64,000 nucleotides of DNA from Escherichia phage ekra, in sequence record MN850644.1; one strand, 5' to 3'. Positions 4,017 to 48,983 of the stretch are shown here, one piece after another. Within the stretch, counting starts at the first letter, position 1. The number at the start of each line of letters is the position of its first letter. A program made the position numbers and the translations under genes. The notes below the pieces were generated by a model. It did no database searches. It was not told the origin of the DNA and saw only the letters and a list, made by a program, of their open reading frames with translations.

Positions 4017-4101
4017 TTTAGAATCTCCAATTTAGGATTGAGTGATAAAGCTCTTTATCTGGGGCTTACTTTATCGAACTATAAGCCCCTTGTAAAGTAC
4101 T

Positions 4102-4374: not shown

Positions 4375-4462
4375 TTTGAATCTCCTAGTTTAAGGGTTTT
4401 ATGTAGTGGGGAGGTCATTTCCTCCCCGTTGATTAGTAATTTACTTGCTTTAAAAACCAAAA

Positions 4463-4795: not shown

Positions 4796-5085
4796 GGTAT
4801 TTCCTCTTTACGTGATACTTTACCATTTACAGTTATCTCATAGGATTCTAATAAATCGCTTTTAGACTTTACAGGACTTTTAAAAGTATCATCATAAATA
4901 TTAACTTGCAATACAGGTTTTTTATATTCCCTGCAACTATTCCATAAGCAAATCACTACACGACGGCCTTTTATTTTGCCGTGTAACCATTCCATAACAT
5001 CATGACTATTTCTTGATGTCTCGATAAAATCAATTTTGTTGAGTAACTTGCTTAGATTTTCACGAACTTTATTCGATAATTTCAT
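4789..5085 (-). CDS. hypothetical protein (98 aa)
   Basis: ORF; type B cassette upstream (5086-5170). Confidence 0.5.
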   Translation of the reverse strand: MKLSNKVRENLSKLLNKIDFIETSRNSHDVMEWLHGKIKGRRVVICLWNSCREYKKPVLQVNIYDDTFKSPVKSKSDLLESYEITVNGKVSRKEEIPC

Positions 5086-5277
5086 TTTAGAATCTCCAGT
5101 TTAGGATTTAGTGGTAAAGCTCTTTATCTGGGGCTATCTTACCAGCTTGATAACCCCGTGTAAAGAAATCTATTTAGTCCTTAAAGATATTCATCACTGA
5201 GTCTTTTAATGATTCCAAACGTTCTAATACTTCAGATTCTGCGTCTGAGTTGTTCACTTCTTCTTTTAGCCTGTCAT

Positions 5278-5685
5278 CTAAATCATCGCCGTCACTATAG
5301 CACCAATCAAAAGCGTAACCGATATAAAACTGTCTAAAATTGTTTGACCATTTGCATCGACAACTTTCGCGGCAAGGTTGTATTCTGAAGCCTCTAAATC
5401 TCTTTCTAGTTCTTTCTGTAAGCTTGTGTAAGCCTCTTTTGATGGATTTTCCCGGCCTTGTTTTGCATAGTCACTTGAAAGCTGTTTAAGGCTGTAATGC
5501 AAAGGGATTGCATATTTAAAATCATTACGCTGACAGTTGGGATTTTTAACAGTCACACCGCCTTGATGGTCGTTTGTAAACTCCCAATTATCGAGATTAT
5601 GGCTTGCTTCGTAGCAATTTACCGCTTCGTAAATGATGGAAAATTTTTCTTTTACAACTTCAAAGGTAGCGTCTACAGTTTTCAT
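5278..5685 (-). CDS. hypothetical protein (135 aa)
   Basis: ORF; type B cassette upstream (5686-5780). Confidence 0.5.
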   Translation of the reverse strand: MKTVDATFEVVKEKFSIIYEAVNCYEASHNLDNWEFTNDHQGGVTVKNPNCQRNDFKYAIPLHYSLKQLSSDYAKQGRENPSKEAYTSLQKELERDLEASEYNLAAKVVDANGQTILDSFISVTLLIGAIVTAMI

Positions 5686-5780
5686 TTTTGAATCTCCTAG
5701 TTTAAGGACTTGATTTAGTGGTAAAGCTCTTTATCTGGGGCTTAAGATACCAACTTTTAAGCCCCTTGTAAAGTACTTTA

Positions 5781-6038
5781 TCAGATTAAATTGCCAGTTA
5801 ATGATAAGTGCATTTTATAGCCTTTTTTGGTAAACACGTTCACTTTACCGAGTGATTTTACACCTTTAAAAAGGTTGTTTGAATTACGTTTTAAGGTTAA
5901 TTGCTTATCCGACTTCACGTTCCACCTTACAGCGGATTGTTTTCCGTTGTCAACCACTTTCCCGCCTAACTTTTTCGCCATGATGCGAGCGTCATCACGA
6001 GTTTTTGCAGGAATTACAACGTTTTTGATAATAGCCAT
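5781..6038 (-). CDS. hypothetical basic protein (85 aa)
   Basis: ORF; K/R-rich; type B cassette upstream. Confidence 0.5.
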   Translation of the reverse strand: MAIIKNVVIPAKTRDDARIMAKKLGGKVVDNGKQSAVRWNVKSDKQLTLKRNSNNLFKGVKSLGKVNVFTKKGYKMHLSLTGNLI

Positions 6039-6123
6039 TTTTGAATCTCCAATTTAGGATTTAGTGGTAAAGCTCTTTATCTGGGGCTTACTTTATCGAA
6101 CTATAAGCCCCTTGTAAAGTACT

Positions 6124-6507
6124 TTATTTGTTAATTTTGAAGATAGTTACATAACCATCGCTGCCGATGATTTGTGATGCTCCAGCTTTTTCTACTTGAT
6201 AGCCCATATTTTCAAGATGGTAAACAGCATCATCATAACCATATGCGCCGCCCTGATAACGTCTCTTATCACATCTTACTAATACCTTTCCACGTCCTGC
6301 CAGTGCATTTAGTACGGCTTTTTCACTTGAAAGTGTACCATCTAACATGGTTGCCGTGTAATGGTTGATTCTATTCCCGTTTACATCATACTTAAAATTG
6401 AATGCGTGAACAACGATAATGTTACCTTTAAAATTTTCATCAAGTGACTTCTCCAGTGCGTTGCGAAAGTTGTCTTTGTTGATGAATTTAGGTGCACGAT
6501 ATGCCAT
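6124..6507 (-). CDS. hypothetical protein (127 aa)
   Basis: ORF; type B cassette upstream (6508-6597). Confidence 0.5.
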   Translation of the reverse strand: MAYRAPKFINKDNFRNALEKSLDENFKGNIIVVHAFNFKYDVNGNRINHYTATMLDGTLSSEKAVLNALAGRGKVLVRCDKRRYQGGAYGYDDAVYHLENMGYQVEKAGASQIIGSDGYVTIFKINK

Positions 6508-6597
6508 TTTTGAATCTCCTAGTTTAAGGGTTAATTTGGTAAAGCTCTTTATCTGGGGCTTACTTTATCGAACTATAAGCCCCTTGTAAAGTACTTT

Positions 6598-6819
6598 TTA
6601 TTTATCGTAGTAGTAAATTGCTGTCTGTCTCGTAAATTTTTTAGTATTTCTTGTAAGGTAGCAATTAGAGTTTATAGCTGTTTCTACATAGTTGCAATAG
6701 TCAGCTTCTGATATTCTGGACCATACGCCACAGATTTGCATGTAAAAACGTTTTGCCTTTGTGTTAACGTTAGTTGTAACCATCAATTCGCGACTGTAAA
6801 GCATTATTTCGCGCTCCAT
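6598..6819 (-). CDS. hypothetical protein (73 aa)
   Basis: ORF; 16-nt overlap with upstream ORF. Confidence 0.45.
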   Translation of the reverse strand: MEREIMLYSRELMVTTNVNTKAKRFYMQICGVWSRISEADYCNYVETAINSNCYLTRNTKKFTRQTAIYYYDK

Positions 6820-6992
6820 TTCTCAAAGAGTTCAGCAGGGAAACGTTCGCTATACCCTTTTAAGGAAAAAGTATTATCTTTGTGGATAGCTTCCACCTGA
6901 TAAACCTTATAAGAGCGTATAGTTAGCATTTTGTAAGAGTATTCGTGCTTAATGTTAACCTCATCGCCAACTTTAATTTTTCTTGATGCCAT
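6804..6992 (-). CDS. hypothetical protein (62 aa), first gene of the early cluster
   Basis: ORF; type A cassette upstream (6993-7060). Confidence 0.45.
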   Translation of the reverse strand: MASRKIKVGDEVNIKHEYSYKMLTIRSYKVYQVEAIHKDNTFSLKGYSERFPAELFEKWSAK

Positions 6993-7205
6993 TTTTGAAT
7001 CTCCAGTTTAGGATTTTATTTAGTGGGGAAGGTCATTCCCTCCCCGTTGATGTAAATATTAGATAACCACGTTCAAAGAGTCAATAAAAATTTTAAAAAT
7101 ATTTTTGGCAAAACTGTAATGAAACGGGTGCGCAAGACTACCACAAAACAGAACGCAAATCAAGAATTATTTTTCAATCCGCTACAAATTTTTCTCTTGA
7201 CTTTT

Positions 7206-15750: not shown

Positions 15751-15770
15751 GGCTCCCGTAGGAGCCTCTT
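15751..15770 (-). terminator. Intrinsic terminator hairpin (ggctcc cgta ggagcc) with T-run on minus strand
   Basis: Read directly; downstream of the NAMPT-like gene. Confidence 0.55.
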
Positions 15771-15781
15771 ATCATATACTT

Positions 15782-17467
15782 TTAAAGCTGCTTGTCAATA
15801 TTATTTCGAATATCACCAAGAGTTGTGTAACCAAACTGCTCAGAGTCACTAAAGACTAAACGTAAAGCACAAGCTGGGTGGTCAAGTACATCTGCAAAAC
15901 TCTGGAATCCATAGCCATCTACAGCTTTCAGCTTACCACCATCCCACATAGGTGCTACACCACCAAAGGCAGATTTCTTAACACCACTATCTGTTTTAGG
16001 GTCTTTTGCAAGCATAATCTCTTTACCACCAATGCTTGCAAGAGTTGCTTTGACAGCAAATGCAAAGGTGTCACGAGTCATGTACTGGTAAGTGTAAGAA
16101 CCTACGCCAAACACTACGTTAGAGCTTGCAAAACCCATTTCATACAGACGCTTCAGGATTTCGTTTGCACGTTCCAGCGTGATAGAGTCACCATAGATAA
16201 GTCCGATATGCTCATCCAGTACCTTAAACCCTTTAGAGTTAATAGTTCCCCCAAAGATGTTGTACAGTGTCTTAATAGCTCCATCAATCTCAGCTACAGG
16301 ACGTGTTACAACGTTTGCAGAACCAACCATATAAGCATTTTTCAACATCACTGTATCAGCAACTTCAAAGTCTTCTCTGTCAACAACCATTTCGTAGCCT
16401 TCTGACAGTAGCCATCCAGCAATACCATAGTTGATATTTTCAAGCTTCATGTTCAGAACAGCATTCAACATTGTGTCACTGGCTTCCAGCTTGCTTAGGT
16501 GCTCGTAATAAGCCTTTTTAGCACATTCTAAGTGGATTGCTTTATAACCTGTGACAATATGTACAGGGTCTCCAGAGTCAGGACGAATTACCAGTTTGCC
16601 ATCACGTTCCATAATTTCTTTACGAAGTGCTGGTAAAATTTCTGACACAGTTCTCCAGAAGTTATAAGTGTCTGAAACAACACTTGCAATACCAGTTGGG
16701 TAAGTTTCTGTTAAGAAACGACGGAAGGTTTGTAACTCACCTTTAAAGCGTCTTTCTTCTTCAATCAACTCATTACCACCTTCCCAAGCAATGTTTGCAC
16801 ACATTACAGAGTGCTCAGTGGCTGGTACAGAACCACCAATATCAGAGATTGGGTAAGACTGCCCGTAGATGCGTTTAGCTGTATATACAGCAGGGAAGCT
16901 ATCAGTTCCTTTAAAGCTGGTTAAGTGGCCTACAGCATTAAATGCGTCATCAGTAAAGCCGGACATACCACGCATAGCAAAGTCATGGCACTGATAAGGC
17001 AAATGTAAGTCGTTGTCACAAGTAAGGTCAGCCCACTTCTTACAGATACGTTTGTAGTGTAATGCAATAGTTGCAATGGTACAAGCCTTCCAAATCTCAG
17101 CAGAAAAAGCATCTTCCAGATACCCCGCTACCCAATGGAAACCTGAAACAGTGTTCTGGAAGACAATCATTGGCACACGCATAGGGACAACTGTGCCTTC
17201 TTCTACAGCGTATACTTCAACTGGCAGATAACCCAAGTCGTGAAGTGCTTCCCAATGCTCTCGACCGATAGCATCTTTACCCAGAACACCATTCATGACT
17301 TCTAAGATTTCGTCAATTGCTTCTTTTTTATCACGTTCAAAGAAGGTGGCATTCCAATGGTCTATCAAGTAATCTTTAACAAAACGTTGAATACCAAAAG
17401 CCACTACACCGTCAATTGCCAAAGGGCTGTTAAACCATTTGTCGCTACGTGGTGTCAGGTTCAACAT
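15782..17467 (-). CDS. Nicotinamide phosphoribosyltransferase (NAMPT/NadV) family protein; may be a nicotinamide ADP-ribose transferase of a phage NAD+ reconstitution pathway
   Basis: Matches recalled NAMPT motifs: IRPDSGDP, GDS...GVGSY, KDPKTDSGVKKSAFGG; 561 aa. Confidence 0.8.
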   Translation of the reverse strand: MLNLTPRSDKWFNSPLAIDGVVAFGIQRFVKDYLIDHWNATFFERDKKEAIDEILEVMNGVLGKDAIGREHWEALHDLGYLPVEVYAVEEGTVVPMRVPMIVFQNTVSGFHWVAGYLEDAFSAEIWKACTIATIALHYKRICKKWADLTCDNDLHLPYQCHDFAMRGMSGFTDDAFNAVGHLTSFKGTDSFPAVYTAKRIYGQSYPISDIGGSVPATEHSVMCANIAWEGGNELIEEERRFKGELQTFRRFLTETYPTGIASVVSDTYNFWRTVSEILPALRKEIMERDGKLVIRPDSGDPVHIVTGYKAIHLECAKKAYYEHLSKLEASDTMLNAVLNMKLENINYGIAGWLLSEGYEMVVDREDFEVADTVMLKNAYMVGSANVVTRPVAEIDGAIKTLYNIFGGTINSKGFKVLDEHIGLIYGDSITLERANEILKRLYEMGFASSNVVFGVGSYTYQYMTRDTFAFAVKATLASIGGKEIMLAKDPKTDSGVKKSAFGGVAPMWDGGKLKAVDGYGFQSFADVLDHPACALRLVFSDSEQFGYTTLGDIRNNIDKQL

Positions 17468-36279: not shown

Positions 36280-37080
36280 TTAGTGCAGTTGCTCAGCAGA
36301 CTCTTTTTCAGCCATAGCTGAGATTTGCTTCACAAAATCATCACCGAAGTTAATGCGTAGTTTTTCTTCAATGATTGAAGCACCAATGTTCACCAAAACA
36401 TCATTGATGGCTTGCATACTAACGCCACCAGTCATCTCCTCAATGAACTCAATACTTACACCCATCATCTGTGAAAGTTGGATTAGTGCAACGATATTCA
36501 TCATCGTAGAGATAGCTGGAATCATCAGTGCAACTTTCACCTGAAGTGGTTCTATATCAGCTACAGAGTCATTTTCAACAGCTTCTTCCAAAGAATCTTT
36601 GGTTTGCTGGATAATTTCTTGGATTCGTGGGTTTAGTTCTTCTACCCCCCAATCAAGTTTTTCATATCGTGACAGCTTCTCTTCCATTCGCTTCTCAAGA
36701 GCAGCCATAACAGCACTTGTTGATGAAATTATCATGGAAATTAACTCATTATTACCTAATGACAGTAATAAGTCCTTTTCTTCAGAGTTAAGGGAGATAT
36801 AGTCATTTTTCTGCATCTCCTTAAAAATGAACTCTGCAAGAGCATCAACACCTACGACTATAGATGCTAAAGCAAGTGTAGTGTCTGTCAACATCATGTT
36901 AACCTGTTCTGCAAAAGCACCGTTATCAGACTTGTCTTCAGGCAAGTTATAGCTTGAAGGCATAAACTGTTCTGTGTAGTTGTTCCCACGAAGAATCATA
37001 GCCATGCTTTCTACGGCATTGATTAAAAATGCTTCGTCAATACCTTTTTCTTCAAGCATCTTTTCTACATCGATATTCAT
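36280..37080 (-). CDS. hypothetical acidic protein (266 aa)
   Basis: ORF. Confidence 0.5.
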   Translation of the reverse strand: MNIDVEKMLEEKGIDEAFLINAVESMAMILRGNNYTEQFMPSSYNLPEDKSDNGAFAEQVNMMLTDTTLALASIVVGVDALAEFIFKEMQKNDYISLNSEEKDLLLSLGNNELISMIISSTSAVMAALEKRMEEKLSRYEKLDWGVEELNPRIQEIIQQTKDSLEEAVENDSVADIEPLQVKVALMIPAISTMMNIVALIQLSQMMGVSIEFIEEMTGGVSMQAINDVLVNIGASIIEEKLRINFGDDFVKQISAMAEKESAEQLH

Positions 37081-37081
37081 A

Positions 37082-37504
37082 TTATTTCTCTCTCAGTTGG
37101 TTAAGTTTCTTTCTAGAACATTTTAAGTTTTCGGATGAAGAAAAGTCAAGTGTCTTTTCAGAACGTGGATAATAGTGCCTATCCCAAGAAGTTTCAACAT
37201 CGTTAATCAGTGACGCTAGATTACACAGGTCTGTACCACTTTGCAACCTCTTTTTAAGAGAATCTAGTAAAGCAACTGTGTCTTTAGCTTTACGTCTCGC
37301 TGTAGCAACATCTTTCATATGCTCAAACACAGAGCATTTTAAGTCATCTTCATAGTTTTCAGATAACTCTATTTCGTGTTGTATATCAACCATTCTCCTG
37401 TGATGGTGAGCATATTCCCGTTGAGCAGCAATGTCAAGTTCTTCCAACTTCTGCAAAGCTCTAACAAAGTCAGCTATGTCTGGGTGAACAAACATTTTCT
37501 GCAT
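37082..37504 (-). CDS. hypothetical protein (140 aa)
   Basis: ORF; first gene of the minus-strand block. Confidence 0.5.
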   Translation of the reverse strand: MQKMFVHPDIADFVRALQKLEELDIAAQREYAHHHRRMVDIQHEIELSENYEDDLKCSVFEHMKDVATARRKAKDTVALLDSLKKRLQSGTDLCNLASLINDVETSWDRHYYPRSEKTLDFSSSENLKCSRKKLNQLREK

Positions 37505-37761
37505 GTAAGCCTCTTTTAAGTAACTATTTAGTTTTAATCTTTTATCTTAACGTATTCTATACGTTATACTTTAAAGCTTTTTAAAAGCTATTAAATAATC
37601 TTTTAAGAGTTTTAAAGTATCTGTATAGTTAAACTGTTAAGTAACCTTTTAAGTAAAAACCCACTTCGCAAAGATTAACACCTTGTCAAGTGCATTGTCA
37701 ACTTGCTTTTTATAATTTTTTGCAGTAATGTATGAGGTTAATGATTTTAGAGGGAGTAAAA
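37505..37761. promoter_or_regulatory. Divergent intergenic region at the strand switch; AT-rich, contains duplicated TTGTCAA and TATAAT-like hexamers
   Basis: No ORF; ccttgtcaagtgcattgtcaacttgctttttataatt; genes diverge from here on both strands. Confidence 0.45.
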
Positions 37762-40461
37762 ATGGAAAACGTAGATTTTAAAAACTTACATTTAGTTGGT
37801 GATACAGAAACTGATGGTTTACTCCTTGAGTTCACTAAAGTGCACGTAATGGCTTTCGCAGACTATAAATCTGACGATGAAGAGCCACCTGTATGGGTCT
37901 TTACAGATGAGCCTATCCTCGGTCACAAGTACACTAAGTACATCAAGGGCGGCTTACGTGAAGGTGTTGAATTTGCGTTAAAGGCAAAACGTCTTTGCAT
38001 CCATAATGGTCTCGGCTATGACTGGTGGGTTTTCAATCACATTGCGCCTGATTTATGGAACTTTGATAATCCAAAATGTAAGCCGTGGAGTAATTTCTTT
38101 CAGGATTCTCTTATCCAGTCTCGTGTTCAGTGGATGGATAGGCCAACCCCAAAGGGTTATAAAGGTGCTCATGGTTTGGCTGCATGGGGTGCTCGTGTTG
38201 GTGTCCGTAAACCAGAGATTGAACATTGGGGTGTGTGGAATGCAGAAATCTTCACTCGTGTTGTAGAAGATATCCGTATTAACGCCAAAACTAAACGGGC
38301 ACTTGATAATGAGTATCTCAAGCTTAAGAAGTGTGGCATAGATACTTATGAAACCTATATGCGAGCTAAAGAAACATCTTTCTGGATGAGTCAACAAGCT
38401 ATCAATGGTTGGAAAGCTGATAAGGAGCTTATGGAGTTCCATGTAAAGGAACTTGACAAGTTGACTAATGAGCTTGCTTCAGAGGTTGAACCACATCTTC
38501 CTCCAACTATTAAGACCAAAGGTAAAGTGACTGGAGAAGAGTTTGCAAAAGCTTGGAATGAGTATGTTGAAACATTTGGTCATGCAGATGGACTGAAGAG
38601 GATTACCAAGTACCCTAAGACAAAGTATCGTCAGCAGGTACGTAATGGTGAGATGCAGACATATGAAATCAAGCCATTTGGTAAGCCAACTACAAAGATT
38701 TTTAACATTGAAAAGAGAAATTGCTATACACCAACCAACTCTGTAACTGGTGAAGAGTACAAGGAGGGTTTTGTAGCAATGAAGGATGCTCGTGAAATTT
38801 GCAATGAGTTGAATGCAAAGATTGGTAAGAAATGCAAAGACTGGAAGCCAGTAAAAACAGTCAAAACTGTGAAGTACTATAACAGTCACGTTGTTAACCA
38901 CTTTGAACTTGAGTCAAGTCGCTACACAGGTTTGATTGATGCACCGTATACACCAATTGAGTTTGAAGTTTCTCGTATGACTCAGGTAGCAGTTGTTAAA
39001 GACTACTTGAAATCAGTTGGTTGGATTCCAGATGACTGGAACTACAAGAAAGACTCAGATGGTCGCCCTGTCAAAGTTTGTCGTTTCAAAGACAATAAAA
39101 AGATGATTACAAAACATCCTAAGTGGCAGGAAATGGTTGAGCGGTGTGGTTTGAGCTATGTTGAGCACGAAGGTGTACAGTATATTGAGCATAACTGGTC
39201 TGTGAAGAAGTACACAGATTTGCTTGAGCCTTGCTTAATCCGTACTTCACCAAAACTTACTGAATCATCTTATGATACGATTGAAGGTGAGCTTGGACAG
39301 AAGATTGCGAAATACTACACTTTGATGCACAGACGCAGAACTATTGAGAACTCAAAGGATGATGAAAAAGGTTGGTTGAACCAGATTCGTCCTGATGGTC
39401 GCCTTAGTGCTGGTGCAATGGTGTTTGGTACTTCAACTGGACGTATGACACAATATGGTATTGTAAACGTACCGTCTGGTGCTGCTGTCTATGGGGAACC
39501 AATGAGGGCAGTGTGGATTTGTGAGGAAGGGACTAACGTTGTCTCTGTAGACATGAACTCAGCCCAGCTAGTTCTTCTTTGTAACTTTATGGGTGACAAA
39601 GACTTCACCAAAGCGGTAACGCAAGGTAAAGAAGAGATTGAGTTCATTCGTCAAGAAGATGGACGCTATTACTGCAAACATTTTGATGAGTATCTCAACC
39701 CAGAAATTGATAAGTACCTTCGCTATGACTCTGAGAATGACCTGTACGTTGTCTATTCAGGGACTGATGCACATACACTGAACAGTATTTACTTTAGCTT
39801 GAATGATGAGCAGGATATCTTGACTTGTCGAGCTACTCAGGATGAGAATCTTCTTCATGAGATTAGCAAAGGTCGTAAGAAAGCTAAGAATGGTATCTAT
39901 GCACTGCTGTTCGGTGCAGGTGATGAGAAGTTTGCTAAGACGATTAAAGCTGCAACTACTCAGGAAGGAGCACTGACTAAACAGACTTACTTTATTCGTT
40001 TGCCTAAAATTAAGAAGCTGCTAGATGACTTGGAAGCTGACTACAAAGCAACTAAAAAGGCACTTGAAGAGGTGTTTGGTAAGACTGCTGCAATCTCTAA
40101 AGGGGGTTTTGTAAAGGTTGCTGGAGCTTGGTTGTGGTGTAAATCTCCACATAAGTTATTGAATTATTTGCTCATGGGTTCAGAGGCTCAGATTCAAAAT
40201 GAGGCGATTAACCTTGCTTGTAGAAGAGCATGTGAAGAAGGGTTGACAAAATTAAATGGACGAAAACCAGCAATTGGTGCTAGGCTTTTGCTGGCATACC
40301 ACGATGAAAACAGTTGGGAGTGCCCAGAAAGTATGACTCAAGAAGTTAAAGCCATAACTGACTGGATGTATGGTCAGGCATCTAAGAATTTAGGTTTGAA
40401 GAGTGAGACGCTTGTAACTGGCACAGGTAAGGTTGGTAAGAGCTGGTTGGAAGTGCATTGA
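37762..40461 (+). CDS. DNA polymerase, family A (T7/Pol I-like)
   Basis: Motif A-like SVDMNSAQL, motif B-like KAKNGIYALLFGAG, motif C LLAYHDE; start placed at ATG with GGGAG RBS (MENVDF). Confidence 0.85.
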   Translation: MENVDFKNLHLVGDTETDGLLLEFTKVHVMAFADYKSDDEEPPVWVFTDEPILGHKYTKYIKGGLREGVEFALKAKRLCIHNGLGYDWWVFNHIAPDLWNFDNPKCKPWSNFFQDSLIQSRVQWMDRPTPKGYKGAHGLAAWGARVGVRKPEIEHWGVWNAEIFTRVVEDIRINAKTKRALDNEYLKLKKCGIDTYETYMRAKETSFWMSQQAINGWKADKELMEFHVKELDKLTNELASEVEPHLPPTIKTKGKVTGEEFAKAWNEYVETFGHADGLKRITKYPKTKYRQQVRNGEMQTYEIKPFGKPTTKIFNIEKRNCYTPTNSVTGEEYKEGFVAMKDAREICNELNAKIGKKCKDWKPVKTVKTVKYYNSHVVNHFELESSRYTGLIDAPYTPIEFEVSRMTQVAVVKDYLKSVGWIPDDWNYKKDSDGRPVKVCRFKDNKKMITKHPKWQEMVERCGLSYVEHEGVQYIEHNWSVKKYTDLLEPCLIRTSPKLTESSYDTIEGELGQKIAKYYTLMHRRRTIENSKDDEKGWLNQIRPDGRLSAGAMVFGTSTGRMTQYGIVNVPSGAAVYGEPMRAVWICEEGTNVVSVDMNSAQLVLLCNFMGDKDFTKAVTQGKEEIEFIRQEDGRYYCKHFDEYLNPEIDKYLRYDSENDLYVVYSGTDAHTLNSIYFSLNDEQDILTCRATQDENLLHEISKGRKKAKNGIYALLFGAGDEKFAKTIKAATTQEGALTKQTYFIRLPKIKKLLDDLEADYKATKKALEEVFGKTAAISKGGFVKVAGAWLWCKSPHKLLNYLLMGSEAQIQNEAINLACRRACEEGLTKLNGRKPAIGARLLLAYHDENSWECPESMTQEVKAITDWMYGQASKNLGLKSETLVTGTGKVGKSWLEVH

Positions 40462-40471
40462 TGGTGTTGAA

Positions 40472-40984
40472 ATGATTACAGAAATTCGTCTTAAGGAGCT
40501 ATTGGACTACGACCCCGAAACAGGGGTCTTTACTTGGAAGTTTAGAGAAGGTAATGCAAACTTTAACTCTAGATTTGGAGGTAAGAGGGCTGGAAACTAC
40601 AGAACAAATACTGATGGACACAAGTCAGTTCAGTTGCTGATTGATGGAAGGGGTTACCAAGCAAATCGTTTAGTTATCTTGTATATGGATGGATATCTAC
40701 CTGATAAAACCTTACAGGTTGACCATAAGAATGGGGACGGTTGGGACAATAGGTACTTGAATTTAAGGGTTTGTACAGCTTCACAAAACTCTTGCAATCG
40801 GTCAAGAGAGTCCCCATCTGGGTTGCCAAAAGGTGTACAGAAGATAAGTAAAAGGTTTCGAGCAATGATACGTTTACAAGGTAAAAACTATCATCTTGGT
40901 ATGTTTGACACACCAGAAGAAGCCCATAAAGCTTACTGTGAAGCTGCTATTAAACTCCACGGAGAGTTTGCAAAACTATCTTGA
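40472..40984 (+). CDS. HNH homing endonuclease with AP2 domain (paralog 3), abutting the polymerase gene
   Basis: DYDPETGVFTW, HKSVQLLIDGRGYQANRLV, VDHKNGDGWDNRYLNLRV; probable start at MITEIRLKE. Confidence 0.75.
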   Translation: MITEIRLKELLDYDPETGVFTWKFREGNANFNSRFGGKRAGNYRTNTDGHKSVQLLIDGRGYQANRLVILYMDGYLPDKTLQVDHKNGDGWDNRYLNLRVCTASQNSCNRSRESPSGLPKGVQKISKRFRAMIRLQGKNYHLGMFDTPEEAHKAYCEAAIKLHGEFAKLS

Positions 40985-41035
40985 CAAGGTGCTCAGGGAA
41001 GAGTACCTTATACAATATCTTGTATAGGAGGACTT

Positions 41036-41245
41036 ATGAGCCATCGTGGAAGAACCCATGCAGCGATGATGAAAGGCGCTTCAAAGGAAACTATCAAGAA
41101 CCGTAAGCAGAAGTTGTTTGAGAGAATGAACAGGTTAATTGACAATTCATCTCTTTCAGGTTCTGAGAAGGTTTTCTTGAAAGGTAATCTGAAAAGCATT
41201 GCACAAGAACTTATTGACATTGAGTATTGGAGACATCAAAAATGA
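41036..41245 (+). CDS. hypothetical protein (69 aa)
   Basis: ORF. Confidence 0.4.
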   Translation: MSHRGRTHAAMMKGASKETIKNRKQKLFERMNRLIDNSSLSGSEKVFLKGNLKSIAQELIDIEYWRHQK

Positions 41246-41454
41246 CACTTGCAGACGTTATCCAACAACTTCATGATAACTGCTATACTCCAGAGTTGAT
41301 TCAGGAGATGCTTATTGTAGTGATGCCTAGTAAGTTCGTAAAAGGTTTTAATAATGACTCTTTAAGGTCTGCGCATATCCTTATTGTTGATGGTAAGATT
41401 GCAAGGGACCGTACTGGAGTCCTTAAGGGCGAACGTATTAATATTAACCTCTGA
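41227..41454 (+). CDS. hypothetical protein (75 aa)
   Basis: ORF. Confidence 0.4.
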   Translation: METSKMTLADVIQQLHDNCYTPELIQEMLIVVMPSKFVKGFNNDSLRSAHILIVDGKIARDRTGVLKGERININL

Positions 41455-41641
41455 ATATTGGAGATACCGAAAATGAAACGCAAAGTTAAGTTTTTTAATT
41501 TATATGGAAGAGTTGGTAAAGGTTTTGACTGGCAACTGTTACGCTCAAATGTTAAAAGCAATGAATTAGCACCACTTATCATTCATTATCGACGTACATA
41601 CAGAGAAGTAGAGCATCGTGAACAGTAAACAGGGGTGTATT

Positions 41642-41878
41642 ATGTGGAAATCAGTAATTGCGCTTGGTGTTATTTTTCTATCTGGCTGCAACCCTTCTTA
41701 TGAAGATAAAAATGCTTCTTACAGCCTCCCACCAGAGATGCAAGATTGCAGAGTATACAAGTTACATGGTGATGCTATAAGCAGAGATATTGTTGTTGTC
41801 AGATGTCCAAACTCCCAAACAACAACATCTTATAGCTATGGCAAAAATGGTCAATCACACACTACGGTTATTGAGTGA
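41642..41878 (+). CDS. Small lipoprotein candidate
   Basis: MWKSVIALGVIFLSGC: signal peptide with lipobox LSGC. Confidence 0.45.
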   Translation: MWKSVIALGVIFLSGCNPSYEDKNASYSLPPEMQDCRVYKLHGDAISRDIVVVRCPNSQTTTSYSYGKNGQSHTTVIE

Positions 41879-41888
41879 GGGTTTCACG

Positions 41889-42095
41889 ATGGAAGTCCTA
41901 GTAAACTATATCTATTGTTATGATGTTGTTCACTCTACTACAACGGTAGCTCAACGTAACCCAATCGTCCCACGAGAAGGTGAGTTGGTTCGCATTGATG
42001 GTTGGACTTACACTGTGGAAAGCATCATTCATAAGTTTGATGTTGCTGGTGATGTTCAAGTTATTGACGTAGAAATTGGTGGCAAGAGGAAATGA
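41889..42095 (+). CDS. hypothetical protein (about 69 aa)
   Basis: ORF starting MEVLVNYIY. Confidence 0.35.
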   Translation: MEVLVNYIYCYDVVHSTTTVAQRNPIVPREGELVRIDGWTYTVESIIHKFDVAGDVQVIDVEIGGKRK

Positions 42096-42283
42096 ACAAA
42101 GAAGATAAGCATAAAAATGCTGTACGGACTCCTGATGGAAAGATTCAGTCCTTCGTCCTGACAGTTGGTGGAAAGCCATTTCGTTGCCACTGCGGAGCAA
42201 ACTGTTTTCATAAACCAGATAAAAATGACTTAGAGCTTTACGCATGTAATGCTTGCAATACTTGGTATCACTCAGAGGAATAA
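42092..42283 (+). CDS. Small zinc-ribbon protein
   Basis: CHCGANC ... CNACN cysteine pairs. Confidence 0.4.
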   Translation: MNKEDKHKNAVRTPDGKIQSFVLTVGGKPFRCHCGANCFHKPDKNDLELYACNACNTWYHSEE

Positions 42284-42285
42284 AA

Positions 42286-43389
42286 ATGACAATCCTATAC
42301 AAACAAAATAAAGATGGCTCTTTCAACGTCTGGTCATGCGTTGCTGTAGGTGACAAAGTTATTACAACCTATGGTAAAGAAAATGGCAAGATGATGTTTG
42401 AAGAGTACACAGCAGAACCGAAAAACATCGGTAAAAAGAATGAGCGTAACGCTGAACAGCAAGCTCTCTTTGAAGTTGCTGCTAAGTATAAAAAGCAAGT
42501 TGACCGTAAAGGCTACGCTTACACAAAAGAGTCTGCAAAGAATACTGAGAAAGTAGGTGTACAACTTGCTCATGATGCTGCAAAGGTTAGTCATGCAAAG
42601 TATCTGAAGTTCCCTGCTGATGCTCAACCAAAACTTGATGGTGTACGTTGTAGAATTTCAAGACACTTAAGTATTGGCAGTGTATTTACAGCATATTCTC
42701 GTGAGAATACTGTTTACAAAATCCCTACTGAACTAATACCTGACATTATGGCAATGTTAAGGCTCCACAAAGATGTTGATGAATTTGATGGAGAGATTTA
42801 TGCTCATGGGTGGGACTTAGAAGATATTGTCTCCATGATTAAAAATGAAGACAATCCTGACAGACACTTACTTAAGTTCTACTGGTATGATATCTGTGAC
42901 AGTACTAAAACGTGGCCTGAGCGTAGAGATATTATTGAGACTTCACCATTGAATGACTTTAGAGACGGCTGTAAAGTTGTCCCTGTTAAATCTCGTCGTG
43001 TAAATTCTTGGGAAGAGTTTGATGAAGCTCATGATAAGTGGGTTGAAGCTAAGTTTGAAGGTGCAATGTACCGTTCAATCTCTGAAGAATCTTTCTACGA
43101 GTGTTGTCACCGTTCATACTTCTTGATTAAGCACAAGAAGATGCACACTGAAGAGTTTAAAGTGACTGGTGTAAAGACCGATAAACGTGGTCATGGTAAG
43201 TTCGTTGTAGAGACTCTTCCTAACGTCTTTGTAGATGTTTCATGGAAGACTACTCACGAGAAGAAACAGTATCTTGCTGAACACCCTGAAGAGTTTATCG
43301 GGAAACCTTTAACGGTTCAGTTCCAGAAGATGACTCGTAAGGGGTCTTTACAGTTCCCTGTAGGGCTAGTTATTAGGGATTATGAATAA
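42286..43389 (+). CDS. ATP-dependent DNA ligase
   Basis: Adenylation motif I KLDGVRC; size about 367 aa as in T7-type ligases. Confidence 0.7.
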   Translation: MTILYKQNKDGSFNVWSCVAVGDKVITTYGKENGKMMFEEYTAEPKNIGKKNERNAEQQALFEVAAKYKKQVDRKGYAYTKESAKNTEKVGVQLAHDAAKVSHAKYLKFPADAQPKLDGVRCRISRHLSIGSVFTAYSRENTVYKIPTELIPDIMAMLRLHKDVDEFDGEIYAHGWDLEDIVSMIKNEDNPDRHLLKFYWYDICDSTKTWPERRDIIETSPLNDFRDGCKVVPVKSRRVNSWEEFDEAHDKWVEAKFEGAMYRSISEESFYECCHRSYFLIKHKKMHTEEFKVTGVKTDKRGHGKFVVETLPNVFVDVSWKTTHEKKQYLAEHPEEFIGKPLTVQFQKMTRKGSLQFPVGLVIRDYE

Positions 43390-43642
43390 ACTATGTTCAG
43401 TACAGTCATTCTGTTTATACTGGTTGTCTTTGTATTGTCATACGTTGCAAGTAAGCTTTTGGACACATCTTTTGCAATGGGTGTCTTGTTTACAATCTTT
43501 TGTTTCGTGACACATATAGCTATCAGAACTTTTTTATAAAAAGTTGTTGACATAGAAAATTTGGTGAGTATACTGAGCAGCATAAACCAACGGGTACTCA
43601 CCAACATCACTTAAGAGTCTTTGAAAAGGGTTTTTTAAGTGA

Positions 43643-43704
43643 TGTGGGGCGAGGCTCGGTGAGGTGGGGTAAGGCATAGTGCGGTGCTGTTTGGTATGGG
43701 TAGT
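43643..43704 (+). repeat. Tandem GGTNN pentamer array A1 (about 12 units) ending in GGTATGGGTAG
   Basis: 5-bp periodicity of GG read directly. Confidence 0.7.
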
Positions 43705-43773
43705 TAGTCTCAGCTACATTAAAATGAGACTTACCTTTTTAAAAGGTCTTTAAACAGGGTCTTTTAATAAGGT

Positions 43774-43866
43774 TGTGTGATGTGATGTATGGTGCTGTGG
43801 AGTTTGGTTAGGTCCGGTCAGGTATGGTATGGTGATGTGAGGTATGGGTGGATGGTAGTAGCCACG
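43774..43866 (+). repeat. Tandem GGTNN-type pentamer array A2
   Basis: 5-bp periodicity read directly. Confidence 0.6.
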
Positions 43867-43937
43867 TTAAAAATCTACCAAGTTTCTAAAGAGTCTTCTG
43901 TTGAGGGTTCTTTACAAACAACTTAACAATCAACTAA

Positions 43938-44543
<606 letters not shown>

Positions 44544-44545
44544 TT

Positions 44546-44986
44546 ATGAATACGAAAGCATTAGCAGCAAAGTTTAGTTACGGTGACACTGTATCACATT
44601 CTGAGATGGACACCTTCTTAGGTATTGTGAAGCCAACTTATCAAGGTGACATTGTTAAGTACGAAGATGAAATGAAGGCTTATGCGCTTACACGTCTAAA
44701 CCGACTTGAGAAGTTTATTGAGAAGCTTCTTAAAGAAGAGAAGATTTATCTGGTTGCTTCAATGGGTGTTGGTTATCGTGTGGTTGAACCTAAGCATCAA
44801 GCAACTATTGCAAAACGAAAAATGTCTGGTAAAATTGGTCGTGCTTTAAAGCAAGCCACTCAAGCGATTGAGAATGTGAACACTATGGCACTTAGCCATC
44901 AAGAACGCTCACGACTAATTGAACAGCAAAACCATTTAGCTGCTATGAAAGCTAACATTAACAAGCAACGTAGAAAACCTTTCTAA
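44546..44986 (+). CDS. hypothetical protein (146 aa), second gene of the repeat-flanked cassette
   Basis: ORF followed by terminator. Confidence 0.55.
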   Translation: MNTKALAAKFSYGDTVSHSEMDTFLGIVKPTYQGDIVKYEDEMKAYALTRLNRLEKFIEKLLKEEKIYLVASMGVGYRVVEPKHQATIAKRKMSGKIGRALKQATQAIENVNTMALSHQERSRLIEQQNHLAAMKANINKQRRKPF

Positions 44987-44996
44987 GTTAACTAGG

Positions 44997-45020
44997 TAGC
45001 CTCTTCGGAGGCTCCTTTTT
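44997..45020 (+). terminator. Intrinsic terminator (gcctc ttcg gaggc + TCCTTTTT)
   Basis: Read directly after the stop of 44546-44986. Confidence 0.6.
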
Positions 45021-45049
45021 AAAAGGTCTTTAAGAGGGTCTTTTAACAA

Positions 45050-45120
45050 GGTGCTGCGAGGTGGGGTCGGGTCAGGTACGGTCTTGTAAGGTCAGGTTAG
45101 GTAAAGTGAGGTATGGGTAG
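45050..45120 (+). repeat. Tandem GGTNN pentamer array B1
   Basis: ggtcg ggtca ggtac ggtct ... ggtat gggtag. Confidence 0.65.
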
Positions 45121-45186
45121 TTAATCGGAGCTACATAAAAATTCGATTACATCACTTAAGAGTCTTTTAAAAGGGTTTTTAAGTGA

Positions 45187-45251
45187 AGTATGGTATGGCA
45201 TGGCGCGGTGAGGTCGGGTGCGGTCAGGTCAGGTGAGGTTCGGTATGGGTA
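45187..45251 (+). repeat. Tandem GGTNN pentamer array B2 (12 near-perfect units)
   Basis: ggtat ggtat ggcat ggcgc ggtga ggtcg ggtgc ggtca ggtca ggtga ggttc ggtat gggtag. Confidence 0.75.
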
Positions 45252-45319
45252 GTTAGTCTCAGCTACATTAAAATGAGACTTACCTTTTTAAAAGGTCTTT
45301 AAGAGGGTCTTTTAATAAG

Positions 45320-45390
45320 GTATTGTATGGTGTAGTTTGGTTAGGTATGGTTGGGTGTGGTAAGGTAGGGTATGGAAGGATGGCAGTAGC
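45320..45390 (+). repeat. Tandem GGTNN-type pentamer array B3
   Basis: 5-bp periodicity read directly. Confidence 0.6.
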
Positions 45391-45499
45391 CTTATAAAAA
45401 ATCTGCCAAATAAGCTATAAAATCTGTTGACAAGTCAGGTGTTATAGCTTATTTTTATACTCAATGTAATACAAAATTTAATATAACTTTGAGGTCATT

Positions 45500-45883
45500 A
45501 TGAAAAAGGTTTTATTAGCTGCTGCAATGGTTATGGCAATGAATTTACCAGTTAATGCAACAGAACTTCCAAATGTGGACTTATCAGGTGTTCCAGAAGA
45601 CACTTGCCAGATTGTTAAAGGTGTTGCTCTAGCTAATGGTGAGCTACTTAAACCAATCTCTGAAGAGTCTTTGACAGAGATGACTGATAAAGTAACTGAC
45701 TATCAGTATCGTGTTCTTGCAGAGTATTTCCTGCAATCTGCAAACATTAAAGAGAAGCACCATGAAGATATTGATGTACAGGCTATGCTAAATCATCGTA
45801 TCCAGTTTAAAGAAGATTTGATGCAAAAAGCTATGTATGGTGTTGAATATTTCTTAGAAAACAGAAGCTGCACAGGTATTTGA
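45500..45883 (+). CDS. Secreted/periplasmic protein with signal peptide (127 aa)
   Basis: MKKVLLAAAMVMAMNLPVNATE; TTGACA-containing promoter-like sequence about 60 nt upstream. Confidence 0.5.
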   Translation: MKKVLLAAAMVMAMNLPVNATELPNVDLSGVPEDTCQIVKGVALANGELLKPISEESLTEMTDKVTDYQYRVLAEYFLQSANIKEKHHEDIDVQAMLNHRIQFKEDLMQKAMYGVEYFLENRSCTGI

Positions 45884-45884
45884 T

Positions 45885-46097
45885 ATGGCTCTTAAAAAGT
45901 TACATCCCAGAAGCGGTTATGGTAAGATAATTGACGATACAGACGGCTTTACAGTCTTTACAGTCATCTGTCAAGATGATTCACAGATTGAAAAGGCTCT
46001 TGACGATTATCTTAATGATGAACGTGAAAAGGTTAGGGCTACAAACATAGATTCATTAATTGACACTTCACGTAAACGGAAGAAGAAAGATGAATGA
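45885..46097 (+). CDS. hypothetical protein (70 aa)
   Basis: ORF. Confidence 0.4.
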   Translation: MALKKLHPRSGYGKIIDDTDGFTVFTVICQDDSQIEKALDDYLNDEREKVRATNIDSLIDTSRKRKKKDE

Positions 46098-46389
46098 AGT
46101 TTTTGACCCTTATGCTCCACAAGATGATTGGGAGGCTGACAGAGAGGCTGAAATGGAGAGTTATGTTTGTCCAATGGATGTAGACGAAATGAGAGACTTC
46201 GTTGCACATCGTTTTAAGAGAGAGATTAAATCCAGAGGTCTTTCTCAAGAGCAAGTTGCTAAAATTTGTGGTATCTCTCAGGCTCGTGTATCCAACATAA
46301 TCCACCTCACTGGGAATGTTTCCCTTGAGTATATGTTGGAAGTATGTGAAAAATTTGGTGTTAATTTTAATTTAAGGTTGGCAGATTAA
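46090..46389 (+). CDS. Helix-turn-helix (XRE/Cro-like) DNA-binding protein
   Basis: LSQEQVAKICGISQARVSNI; ATGAATGA start/stop overlap with upstream gene. Confidence 0.5.
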   Translation: MNEVFDPYAPQDDWEADREAEMESYVCPMDVDEMRDFVAHRFKREIKSRGLSQEQVAKICGISQARVSNIIHLTGNVSLEYMLEVCEKFGVNFNLRLAD

Positions 46390-46390
46390 T

Positions 46391-46750
46391 ATGAAACGTG
46401 AAAACATTATCCACTCTGAAAACTTCGCATTAGGCTTTTATGGCGTACCCACTCACCTTGAAAAGTATTATGGTGTGAAGATTCTCTCCAATCTCATTAT
46501 GGCTTACAAAGATGGTAAGATTAAGCATACTGAGAAGAAACGTGTCATGGGCTATATGGCTGTAGGCTCAGCAATCTCGAACATTAAGCTGGAGACAACT
46601 AGCAGTCAGATTGTGAAAGACCACTTCATCAAAGAGCTTTACCAGAATCTTGATGGTGTGGATGTTCAGGCTGTTTGGCTGGATGTTGATGGTCATAACT
46701 ACACGAGTTTTGTTTTCAAAAACGATGACATTAAGTGTCTGTTCCCATAA
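46391..46750 (+). CDS. hypothetical protein (119 aa)
   Basis: ORF. Confidence 0.45.
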   Translation: MKRENIIHSENFALGFYGVPTHLEKYYGVKILSNLIMAYKDGKIKHTEKKRVMGYMAVGSAISNIKLETTSSQIVKDHFIKELYQNLDGVDVQAVWLDVDGHNYTSFVFKNDDIKCLFP

Positions 46751-46763
46751 TAGGTGATTAACT

Positions 46764-47279
46764 ATGATTGATGTCTACTTACAAGATGCTCATGCAGATT
46801 TCCTTAAAGAGATGCTTAAAAAGTTTATGGCTTCACAGTATGAGAATGAAGCATCTTTTAAAATAGTTACATGTGGCGACGAAGCTGGTTTTGTTGAGAT
46901 TGAACATGAAGGTACTGGAAAGATTGTTTGTAAGCTACCTGATAGTATGTTCTCTAAAACGTTCTTAACAAAGACTAGTATAAATGTTAAACTTGTACCA
47001 CAGATTGAAACATACTCTGGTACAGATTACCCTAAAGGTTTCAAGTCACTGATGAAACACTTCTTAGATGACTTTGTGAGTAATCTTCTAAGTGAGGTAA
47101 CAGAAAGCCGTACAATATTAACTGTAGAGAATCTAGGGAACACTATCAGGGTTACTTCTGACCGATATTCTATGAGTCTCTTCGACTTTGTACCTAAGAA
47201 CTTTGATGGTATTCTGGATGAAGAAGATGACTGTGTAGACTTTATATTGGTTCTTGAACCAGTTTTTGAGGTTAAATAG
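46764..47279 (+). CDS. hypothetical protein (171 aa)
   Basis: ORF. Confidence 0.45.
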   Translation: MIDVYLQDAHADFLKEMLKKFMASQYENEASFKIVTCGDEAGFVEIEHEGTGKIVCKLPDSMFSKTFLTKTSINVKLVPQIETYSGTDYPKGFKSLMKHFLDDFVSNLLSEVTESRTILTVENLGNTIRVTSDRYSMSLFDFVPKNFDGILDEEDDCVDFILVLEPVFEVK

Positions 47280-47540
47280 ATGAAAATTGAACACTGCTAT
47301 GAGTCTGATGGAACACCTATCCGTTGTCCACATTGTGGGTGTACAGACTTACAAGGTGAGGTAAGTGAAATAGTCAACGGTCATATTGCTGAAGAAAGTA
47401 CCCGATGCACAGTGTGTAATGAAATTATCGCTTTCTGGGCTTATGGTTCATACCAACCCTCTCCACATTTTATCTACCATCGTAGTAAAGTTGTGAAGAG
47501 TGTCATCAACTGGTTCATTAAGAAAGGGTTTACAAAATGA
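47280..47540 (+). CDS. Small zinc-ribbon protein (86 aa)
   Basis: CPHCGC ... CTVCNE. Confidence 0.4.
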   Translation: MKIEHCYESDGTPIRCPHCGCTDLQGEVSEIVNGHIAEESTRCTVCNEIIAFWAYGSYQPSPHFIYHRSKVVKSVINWFIKKGFTK

Positions 47541-48082
47541 TTAAACTAATATTTGCAAGTGGTGAAAACGGTGAATTTGGTACTCCAACTGGTATGCCGT
47601 GGCCTCGACATAAACAGGACATGCAAGAGTTTAAGAGACTCACTAAAAATAACTTAGTAGTTATGGGTAATGAGACTTTTAAGACTCTGGGTAGTAAACC
47701 TTTACCAGAACGTGCAAACCTCGTCTTAACAAATTCTGTACCATACTTAGGCATAGACTTTGGCAAAGATGATGTAATGTATGCTAAAGCCAGTAAAGAG
47801 TCATTTGGAGCATTTTTGAAGTATCTTGATAGCTCTATTGGTGAAGATGTCTTTGTAATTGGTGGTGCAGGTATCCTTGTCAATGCTTTACCGTATGCTA
47901 GTGTGGTGTTCCATACTGTTTTCCATAAAGTAACTGAAGAGGCCACTGTGCATTTACCTTTTGAAAACTTCTTCGATAAGTTGTATGATAGCCGTGTATT
48001 TGCAAAGGTGCAGTCAAGACCCTCAGATGATGGTAAAGCAACCTTTGAAATTTATGTTCCACAAGTAAAAGGACACTTTTGA
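47537..48082 (+). CDS. frd: Dihydrofolate reductase
   Basis: N-terminus MIKLIFASGENGEFGTPTGMPWP typical of DHFR; directly upstream of thymidylate synthase. Confidence 0.8.
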   Translation: MIKLIFASGENGEFGTPTGMPWPRHKQDMQEFKRLTKNNLVVMGNETFKTLGSKPLPERANLVLTNSVPYLGIDFGKDDVMYAKASKESFGAFLKYLDSSIGEDVFVIGGAGILVNALPYASVVFHTVFHKVTEEATVHLPFENFFDKLYDSRVFAKVQSRPSDDGKATFEIYVPQVKGHF

Positions 48083-48083
48083 T

Positions 48084-48983
48084 ATGTCACAAGCAGATTC
48101 AAGTTACAAAAATATCCTGAACCATGTTTTATCCGTTGGTGAACTGCGTACTACACGAACTGGAGATGTTATCTCTGCTTTTGCTCCACCTAAGTTTCGT
48201 TTTGATATGCGTACTGGTTTCCCACTCTTAACATCTAAACAGGTGTTTACACGGCAAGTTATTGGGGAAGCTTTATGGTTCCTGAATGGTGAGAATAAAC
48301 TTGGTGAACTCCGTTATCGTACTTGGGGTGAAAATGATGGGGAGCGTTGGACTATCTGGTCAGATGATTTTAAACGCTGGTTAAGCTCTAATTATTCTTC
48401 TGAACAAGATTGGTTAGAAGATGCAGGTGGGAGAATCTACGGGGTTCAGTGGAGAAACTTTGAAGGTCATAATGGTTGTGTTGTAGACCAGTTAGAGACC
48501 TTAGTAACAAAGATGAAAGGTGATATCACAGACCGCTACATGCTTGTTAATGCTTGGAATGCAGCAGATATTGCAGCAAACTCGATGGCTTTAGCACCTT
48601 GTCATGTTCTGTTTCAGATTTATATCACCAACGAAGGTGAAGTTGACTTACAATGGTATCAACGTTCTGTAGACACCTTTTTAGGACTTCCATTTAATAT
48701 TGCGTCTTATGGTTTTATTCTGGAAGTTCTTTGTAAGATGACTGGATACACTCCACGATACTTGATAGGTGTCTTTGGAGATACTCAGATTTATCAGAAC
48801 CATATGAAGCAGGTTTATGAACTGATGAACAATGAAGAGTTCCATGCACCTACTTTTGAGATTGGTGTGCAGCTTAACACTCTAAGTGATTTAAAACACC
48901 TTACTGCAAGTGATTTTATTGGTGGCATTAACAACTACCAACATGCAGGGAAGATTGAAGCACCTCTGTCAGTAGGTAAGTAA
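48084..48983 (+). CDS. td: Thymidylate synthase
   Basis: Active-site ALAPCHVLFQ; 299 aa. Confidence 0.85.
   Translation: MSQADSSYKNILNHVLSVGELRTTRTGDVISAFAPPKFRFDMRTGFPLLTSKQVFTRQVIGEALWFLNGENKLGELRYRTWGENDGERWTIWSDDFKRWLSSNYSSEQDWLEDAGGRIYGVQWRNFEGHNGCVVDQLETLVTKMKGDITDRYMLVNAWNAADIAANSMALAPCHVLFQIYITNEGEVDLQWYQRSVDTFLGLPFNIASYGFILEVLCKMTGYTPRYLIGVFGDTQIYQNHMKQVYELMNNEEFHAPTFEIGVQLNTLSDLKHLTASDFIGGINNYQHAGKIEAPLSVGK

Follow-up and report, generated by a model that had tools for sequence, protein, structure and literature searches.

Felix O1-type phages are widely used in Salmonella typing and biocontrol. Whichard et al. (2010) divided the transcription of Felix O1 into four blocks, assumed that divergent promoters are located between gene 96 (encoding the polymerase) and gene 97, and stated that no sigma-70-like sequence was evident in the 96-97 spacer (PMC3185647). 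In the same study a transcript of the polymerase gene was detected by RT-PCR within 5 min of infection, identifying it as an early gene, and the read-through of many Felix O1 terminators was left unexplained (PMC3185647). In the searchable literature we found neither transcription-start nor origin data for any phage of the Ounavirinae. The GenBank record of phage ASO1A carries two promoters annotated in the spacer by a consensus scan. The locus and its presumed role are already in the literature; the new aspects of our analysis are the delineation of the promoters, a paralogous box, and repeat arrays in the leader. The spacer is probably the region from which a Felix O1-type phage controls its early transcription, read in both directions by the sigma-70 RNA polymerase of the host. 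Its anatomy and conservation, its paralogy, and the instability of its duplex are established by our analysis; the start sites, the bound factors, and the role of the leader are inferred. The region is an ordinary kind of element, namely a host-polymerase early promoter region.

Our analysis covered a stretch of 64,000 nucleotides of Escherichia phage ekra, referred to as the window. A megablast search with positions 36500-39000 yielded 259 phage records; the best match was Escherichia phage heid with 99.0% identity, and Felix O1 was 96.1% identical to the same section. Judged by its sequence, the window belongs to Felixounavirus (Ounavirinae) and is derived from a Felix O1-type phage. Window position 1 corresponds to position ~23120 of the heid genome, which has a size of 87.6 kb. 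The spacer is the same locus as the 96-97 region of Felix O1, in a phage that is ~96% identical, and promoter P41 of Felix O1 is a paralogue of the 25-bp box ACACCTTGTCAAGTGCATTGTCAAC found here. Unlike these shared features, the predicted promoter TTGACA-N18-TGtTAATCT, the duplication of the box, the arrays of 8-mers, and the instability of the duplex are not described in the Felix O1 paper.

The original prediction had located a switch of the coding strand at a 257-bp spacer (37505-37761), with all genes from 1475 to 37504 on the minus strand and those from 37762 to 48983 on the plus strand. The ORF map and the heid annotation agree with this gene order, and both show genes on the minus strand again after 49020. 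The spacer is bounded by an ATG at 37504-37502 (minus) and by the polymerase ATG at 37762. It is AT-rich as had been claimed, with a GC content of 0.261 vs 0.387 for the window. The predicted flanking genes were also recovered: these encode a family A DNA polymerase (Pfam DNA_pol_A, E = 1.2e-15) on one side, and a dNMP kinase and a primase-helicase with Toprim and DnaB domains on the other.

The right-hand limit of the spacer depends on the polymerase start, for which several positions compete. The longest ORF opens at 37732, and the start annotated in heid is an in-frame ATG at 37741, which is 21 nt too early. Because several relatives carry frame-breaking 1-nt indels between 37741 and 37762, and because the position of the ribosome binding site also fits, the start is placed at 37762 and the spacer thus comprises 257 bp. 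The ribosome binding site GAGGGAG (37750-37756) and the start codon together occupy 37750-37764 on the plus strand. No credible small ORF was found within the spacer.

On the other side, the first gene of the leftward early operon (37082-37504, minus), supported by its ORF and by the ribosome binding site AAAGAGG (37510-37516, minus) read from the sequence, encodes a 140-aa homologue of Felix O1 gp97. The protein corresponds to PHROG 4039 of the category 'unknown function', and its family is restricted to the Ounavirinae. The AlphaFold model consists of a long helical hairpin (pLDDT 71) and contains no DNA-binding fold; Pfam, a PDB sequence search, and Foldseek yielded nothing significant. Three co-oriented sigma-70-like sites inside this gene (minus; 37437-37409, 37197-37169, and 37149-37120) reached scores of 10.1-12.4 with a position weight matrix (PWM), and by their sequence may drive the downstream replication genes as internal promoters. 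The early replication operon continues with a 266-aa gene (36280-37080, minus), flanked by the gene for the 140-aa protein and that for the dNMP kinase. It is listed as 'minor tail protein' in GenBank and PHROG 4251, has no Pfam match, and is missing from Yersinia phage P778. Its tail annotation looks doubtful.

The strand switch between the polymerase gene and the gp97 homologue is kept in Felixounavirus, Suspvirus, Mooglevirus, Kolesnikvirus, Yersinia phage P778, and Pectobacterium phage Arno162. Spacer lengths in these lineages vary from 238 to 300 bp; they were taken to the next annotated gene, and only in P778 was a small annotated ORF disregarded. Across three genera, identity of the spacer to those of SUSP1, Sf13, and Mordin amounts to 81-87%, whereas in the same comparisons the third codon positions of the polymerase gene reached 62-64% and the adjacent gp97 gene 66-77% identity. 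Since the spacer is more similar than the third codon positions, it is under purifying selection. In the alignments, conserved blocks alternate with freely varying linkers. The TTGTCAA duplication that had drawn attention to the spacer is present at 37683-37689 and 37695-37701. The heptamer alone is not unusual, with 28 occurrences in the window vs 21.7 expected. The pair is considered non-random because it is conserved over three genera, with rare single-base variants only, and because it is part of a 25-bp box of which the genome carries a second copy at its other divergent junction.

Divergent promoters had been expected in the spacer on the basis of TTGTCAA and a TATAAT-like hexamer. Our data support divergent promoters, but not as proposed: TTGTCAA provides a -35 hexamer on the minus strand, and TATAAT is not a conserved -10 element. 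By far the best hit of a sigma-70 PWM scan in the spacer, considering either strand, was the leftward candidate promoter P_L (minus; TTGACA-N18-TGtTAATCT, score 10.9). Its predicted -35 hexamer TTGACA (37696-37701, minus) is contained in the right-hand TTGTCAA copy, and its extended -10 element TGtTAATCT covers 37672-37680 (minus), with the hexamer at 37677-37672 and the TG at 37680-37679. The inner TTGACA (37689-37684) was also considered as a separate -35 hexamer and rejected, as there is no usable -10 element downstream of it.

A score of 10.9 is not rare by itself, ranking 32nd in the window with ~0.13 such hits expected per spacer-sized stretch. Therefore, the case for P_L rests on its positional conservation. 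TTGACA-N17/18-TA...T was the top minus-strand PWM hit in 9 out of 10 Ounavirinae lineages (scores 10.9-13.4), and the equivalent in the remaining phage, phiEa104, was the second minus-strand hit (11.6). In all 10 lineages these sites are located 148-168 nt upstream of the gp97 ATG. This position is kept even in four distant lineages whose spacers can barely be aligned, and TA...T hexamers homologous to the P_L -10 hexamer were present in every lineage examined. With respect to the specificity of the PWM, 50 of the 69 window sites scoring at least 9.5 point in the same direction as the genes, and other intergenic regions also contain clean sigma-70 promoters. P_L would be a strong promoter with leftward transcription from near 37665, resulting in a leader of ~160 nt followed by the first leftward gene and, further downstream, the dNMP kinase and primase-helicase genes. 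A second leftward -10 hexamer, TAGAAT (37559-37554), is conserved in several genera, and on this sequence evidence there may be two leftward start sites.

For the rightward direction, conservation of the hexamers points to a candidate promoter P_R at 37703-37731 (plus; TTGCTT-N17-TAATGT, -35 hexamer at 37703-37708, -10 hexamer at 37726-37731). Both hexamers are conserved over three genera, the -10 hexamer as TA[A/G][T/G]GT; the first part of the intervening sequence is freely variable, as is the initial transcribed region. By consensus P_R is weak, with a PWM score of only 4.9-6.3, and the spacer contains no strong rightward consensus, as Whichard et al. had found. Analogous rightward promoters in distant genera are located 29-76 nt from the ATG. 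The -35 hexamer of P_R abuts that of P_L; hence the two promoters are arranged back-to-back, with predicted starts ~73 bp apart. P_R, the weaker of the two, would start near 37738, ~24 nt before the polymerase ATG.

Two other hexamers compete with P_R for the polymerase operon. The TATAAT singled out by the original prediction is indeed present at 37711-37716 (plus), inside the spacer between the P_R hexamers; it is a perfect -10 hexamer and is kept in 22 out of 22 distinct Felixounavirus spacers. However, it is lost in Suspvirus and Mooglevirus, where SUSP1 has TGAAAC, Sf13 TCAAAA, and Mordin TGAAGA in its place, and it lacks a TG as well as a -35 partner, none having been found at a distance of 15-19 bp among the plus-strand PWM hits listed. 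Thus TATAAT remains a rival -10 element within Felixounavirus. The second hexamer, TATAGT (37624-37629), is invariant over three genera and coincides with one of the promoters annotated in the ASO1A record; its PWM score of 5.7 is slightly above that of P_R. It has no counterpart in distant genera, and its invariance is explained by the fact that, read on the minus strand, it forms the third 8-mer of the leader, CTATACAG. A start of the polymerase operon from TATAAT or TATAGT instead of TTGCTT/TAATGT is therefore considered unlikely.

Back-to-back promoters with a shared regulatory region are familiar from phage lambda, in which PR and PRM at OR form a divergent promoter region with shared operators. 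The arrangement found here would be similar in that two predicted sigma-70 promoters point outward from adjacent -35 hexamers and a palindrome is located inside one of them. Unlike lambda, this phage is virulent and has no lysogeny switch. The palindrome CTTGTCAAG (37682-37690) has a length of 9 bp, includes the left TTGTCAA copy, and is positioned between the -35 and -10 elements of P_L. At this typical operator position, it is most likely a putative operator for a regulator. Among the genes of the rightward early operon is one for an XRE/Cro-type HTH protein of 99 aa (46090-46389, plus; Pfam HTH_3, E = 5e-10), which is a candidate regulator for the palindromes in early promoters and could be one of the proteins acting at CTTGTCAAG.

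Both TTGTCAA copies are part of the 25-bp box ACACCTTGTCAAGTGCATTGTCAAC (37678-37702, unstranded). Searching the 87.6-kb heid genome with this box resulted in only two sites at up to 2 mismatches, one at each divergent junction, and the next best match had 7 mismatches. The second copy, at heid 15880, is the published Felix O1 promoter P41. An exact 12-mer, ACTTAAAAGGTT, is likewise confined to the leaders of the two junctions. The conserved early promoter that was missed by the original genome paper is now located, and it is one of three promoters that form a class with a common leader. Both the promoter and its class provide concrete targets for mapping 5' ends, for reporter, footprinting, and origin assays, and for engineering of the phage. 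In an IMG/VR scan the box gave 54 exact matches, of which 45 were in Ounavirinae. The matches outside this subfamily look like chance hits; they include a family of six contigs, in which the box lies inside coding sequence (VDKALDKV), and two singletons. For one non-Ounavirinae contig with the box, megablast identified no known phage.

The other divergent junction, located outside the window at heid 15754-16372, carries the box with 2 mismatches together with ACTTAAAAGGTT. Its leader is AT-rich as well and contains the fourth least stable 100-bp window of the heid genome, and the junction has a hairpin of its own, AGATATC-tttctg-GATATCT. A third promoter with a double TTGACA was observed at 1911-1730 (minus; TTGACA-ATACCCC-TTGACA...TAAATT, PWM score 13.4). 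Its leader of ~150 nt carries CTTAAAAG and CTTTATAG and precedes the last gene of the leftward block.

The leader that would be transcribed from P_L is a separate conserved element, in which phased CTTAAAAG-type 8-mers are combined with an imperfect AT-rich palindrome and with a hairpin. As part of the early promoter region, it would modulate transcription or the fate of the mRNA of the early operon. The predicted leader (37517-37664, minus) has a GC content of 21.6%, and by a stability scan it is a candidate DNA unwinding element (DUE). A nearest-neighbour scan identified 37510-37659 (21% GC) as the least stable duplex of the window as well as of the whole heid genome (z = 4.5-4.7). Downstream of the predicted start, from about +13, the 8-mers CTTAAAAG (37653-37646), CTTAACAG (37641-37634), and CTATACAG (37628-37621) follow each other in tandem on the minus strand (37621-37653) with a spacing of 12-13 nt. 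When 10 orthologous and 2 paralogous promoters were aligned at their -35 hexamers, 2-4 tandem CT[W][W]A[N]AG units at distances of 11-13 nt were found after all 12. The motif family is enriched in the window, with 79 hits vs 18.4 +/- 5.1 expected. Per kb, there are 23 hits in the spacer and 12.9 in the noncoding region 1-1474, compared with 2.6 in the remaining noncoding DNA and 0.75 in coding DNA. Since part of the genome-wide excess of CTTTTAAG results from junctions between terminator T-tracts and ribosome binding sites, this raw enrichment overstates the specificity.

An imperfect palindrome of ~75 bp (37556-37629, unstranded), centered at 37593, was detected by an inverted-repeat search and by folding. 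Its core inverted repeat has 27-nt arms that are 78% complementary, and the folds extend it. The conserved words of the palindrome are CTTTAAAG, GCTTTTTAAAAGC, CTTTTAAG, and TTTAAAG, and the linkers between them vary freely. A single long RNA hairpin over the whole 75 bp was ruled out, as the variation of the linkers in the alignment is uncompensated. A smaller hairpin or inverted repeat, TAACGTAT-tct-ATACGTTA (37548-37566, minus), was identified by the repeat search and by covariation. It is located ~50 nt upstream of the start codon and overlaps the minus-strand TAGAAT (37559-37554). Compensatory changes were found for 2 of its 8 pairs, one from A-U to U-A in 6 sequences and the other from C-G to U-A in 2. 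There was no one-sided change, and 95% of the cells are paired.

These substitutions speak for a leader that works mainly as RNA, i.e. as a nut-like antitermination site, an element of RNA processing or stability, or a translational operator of the early operon. It would be in line with such a function that the 8-mers in noncoding DNA outside the terminal region are mostly in transcript sense (9 sense vs 3 antisense), and that the long early operon must be read through many intrinsic terminators, a read-through that Whichard et al. could not explain. Yet no Rfam family matched: the window gave no match at gathering score, and a permissive scan of the spacer (37400-37850) yielded only chance-level matches (E > 1). 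The folding z-score is only -2.2 and equal on both strands, and distant genera lack the hairpin. The word CUCUUAAAA in the leader matches the boxA region of lambda nutL, and this likeness also speaks for an RNA function. The two bases that would complete a boxA, however, vary freely among relatives (CU, CC, GU, GA, UU). A lambda-type nut site, consisting of boxA (CGCUCUUA or GCUCUUUAACA) and a hairpin, was rejected on this account: CUCUUAAAA is present, and its CU prefix is not conserved. We doubt that the leader acts mainly at the level of RNA.

The position of the spacer between the primase-helicase and dNMP kinase genes and the polymerase gene had also led to its being put forward as a candidate replication origin. 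Transcripts from P_L could form a persistent R-loop in the AT-rich leader, serving as a downstream unwinding element, and prime leading-strand synthesis, with the T7-like polymerase and primase-helicase extending the P_L RNA. Such an activity would be compatible with the promoter role. The primary origin of T7 also consists of a promoter followed by an easily melted element, and the spacer resembles T7 in adjoining genes for a T7-like polymerase and a primase-helicase. Minimal origins of T4 comprise ~100 bp with a promoter and a DUE rich in A+T, and T4 has some origins at sites where transcription diverges (PMC3016281). By analogy, the layout of the spacer would match that of these minimal origins and in particular resemble oriF and oriG, as a conserved promoter at a transcriptional divergence is directly followed by the least stable, and thus most meltable, duplex of the genome. 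Moreover, the phage encodes no recognizable initiator protein.

Other observations speak against an origin primed in this way. The promoters of T4 and T7 origins depend on MotA or T7 RNA polymerase, whereas the promoter found here is of a plain sigma-70 type. The T4 DUE requires no specific sequence (PMC3016281). In the spacer, by contrast, the leader is conserved word by word, which would be unnecessary for a DUE and therefore points to sequence-specific recognition. Again unlike the T4 and T7 origins, the module of promoter and leader is present in three copies, two of them at other sites of the genome; the phage would have several origins, or else the module serves transcription only. GC skew, which had been suggested as a check, proved uninformative: its minimum at 37-38 kb follows the coding strand and reverses at the convergent junction at 49 kb. 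The third-position skew of the plus strand was 0.00 left of the spacer, +0.09 right of it, and +0.02 beyond 49 kb; it is not mirrored around the spacer and hence does not show the pattern expected of a bidirectional origin. As the sign of the skew follows the coding strand in all three blocks, compositional skew was discarded as origin evidence. Altogether, we regard a transcription-primed origin as possible but rather improbable.

An origin of the iteron/initiator type, or one dependent on host DnaA, in which the 8-mers serve as initiator sites beside an AT-rich melting region, is very improbable. The 8-mers are direct repeats in a single orientation with roughly helical spacing (10-13 bp) within an AT-rich segment, and this class of motifs is conserved across genera, which would suit such a system. 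Against it, the units are 8-mers and not iterons of 17-22 bp, and the repeat search revealed no long multi-copy repeat family. The spacer contains no DnaA, IHF, or CRP box at 1-2 mismatches; it includes one near-match to the Fis consensus and one to that of LexA with a wrong half-site. Rep or initiator signatures are missing from the adjacent proteins, and both the terminal-repeat region and terminator/ribosome binding site junctions elsewhere in the genome are rich in the same words.

The 8-mers resemble -35 hexamers (TTAACA, TTTACA, TTAAAA), begin ~13 nt past the start of each of the three paralogous early promoters, and occur in every Ounavirinae genus examined; around the terminal repeat they form arrays with a period of 11 bp. 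It is conceivable, with a low probability in our view, that they mark a new phage control system. They could serve a factor, or sigma region 4, in engaging early elongation complexes for pausing or antitermination, or act as sites that nucleate R-loop origins at several loci.

Arrays of related words were observed at the terminal repeat. The terminal repeat of T7 is flanked by the short-repeat arrays SRL and SRR. Similar to these, related 8-mers (CTTAACAG, TAACAR) with a period of 10-12 bp are found here in a noncoding region with a terminal repeat; the SRL/SRR-like arrays are located in this terminal region and not in the spacer. The region 1-1474 is a noncoding stretch of 1.47 kb between two convergent gene blocks and is filled with arrays of 10-12-bp period, among them CTTAACAATCT (6.6 copies), TAACAAGTGGC (2.8 copies), ATTGTTAAGAA (2.8 copies), and CTTCTAACAAGC (3.4 copies). 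The array words belong to the same family as the 8-mers of the spacer leader. TAACAR occurs 24 times on the plus strand in 1-940, out of 69 occurrences on this strand in the whole window, and the orientation of the motifs changes from mainly plus to mainly minus between ~760 and 1020. This region overlaps the direct terminal repeat (DTR) of the genome, as the 570-bp repeat of Citrobacter phage HP1 maps to ~430-1000, and several GenBank records begin or end within it. For phage UAB_Phi87 a DTR of 608 bp has been described (PMC4837284).

Two further noncoding regions with repeats, 43540-43788 and 44987-45499, are part of the rightward block. They contain GGT-periodic arrays with a period of 5/10, e.g. 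GGTCAGGTAA and GGTGAGGTCA, and a 132-bp unit in 1.8 copies. Palindromic words found there, such as CTTTTTAAAAGG and TCTTTAAGAGGGTCTTTTAA, resemble those of the spacer. In the early small-gene region (2286-7173), near-identical intergenic cassettes are repeated at least 6 times. One type consists of CTTTACAAGGGGCTTA...TAAGCCCCAGATAAAGAGCTTTACCACTAAATCC, the other of TTGACA-N17-TAAATT followed by a GGGGAGGGAATGACC(A/T)TCCCC hairpin, so that each cassette combines a -35-like TTTACA or TTGACA with a GC-rich hairpin. These cassettes match repeats of 57 bp and 39 bp that Whichard et al. had noted in Felix O1 (PMC3185647).
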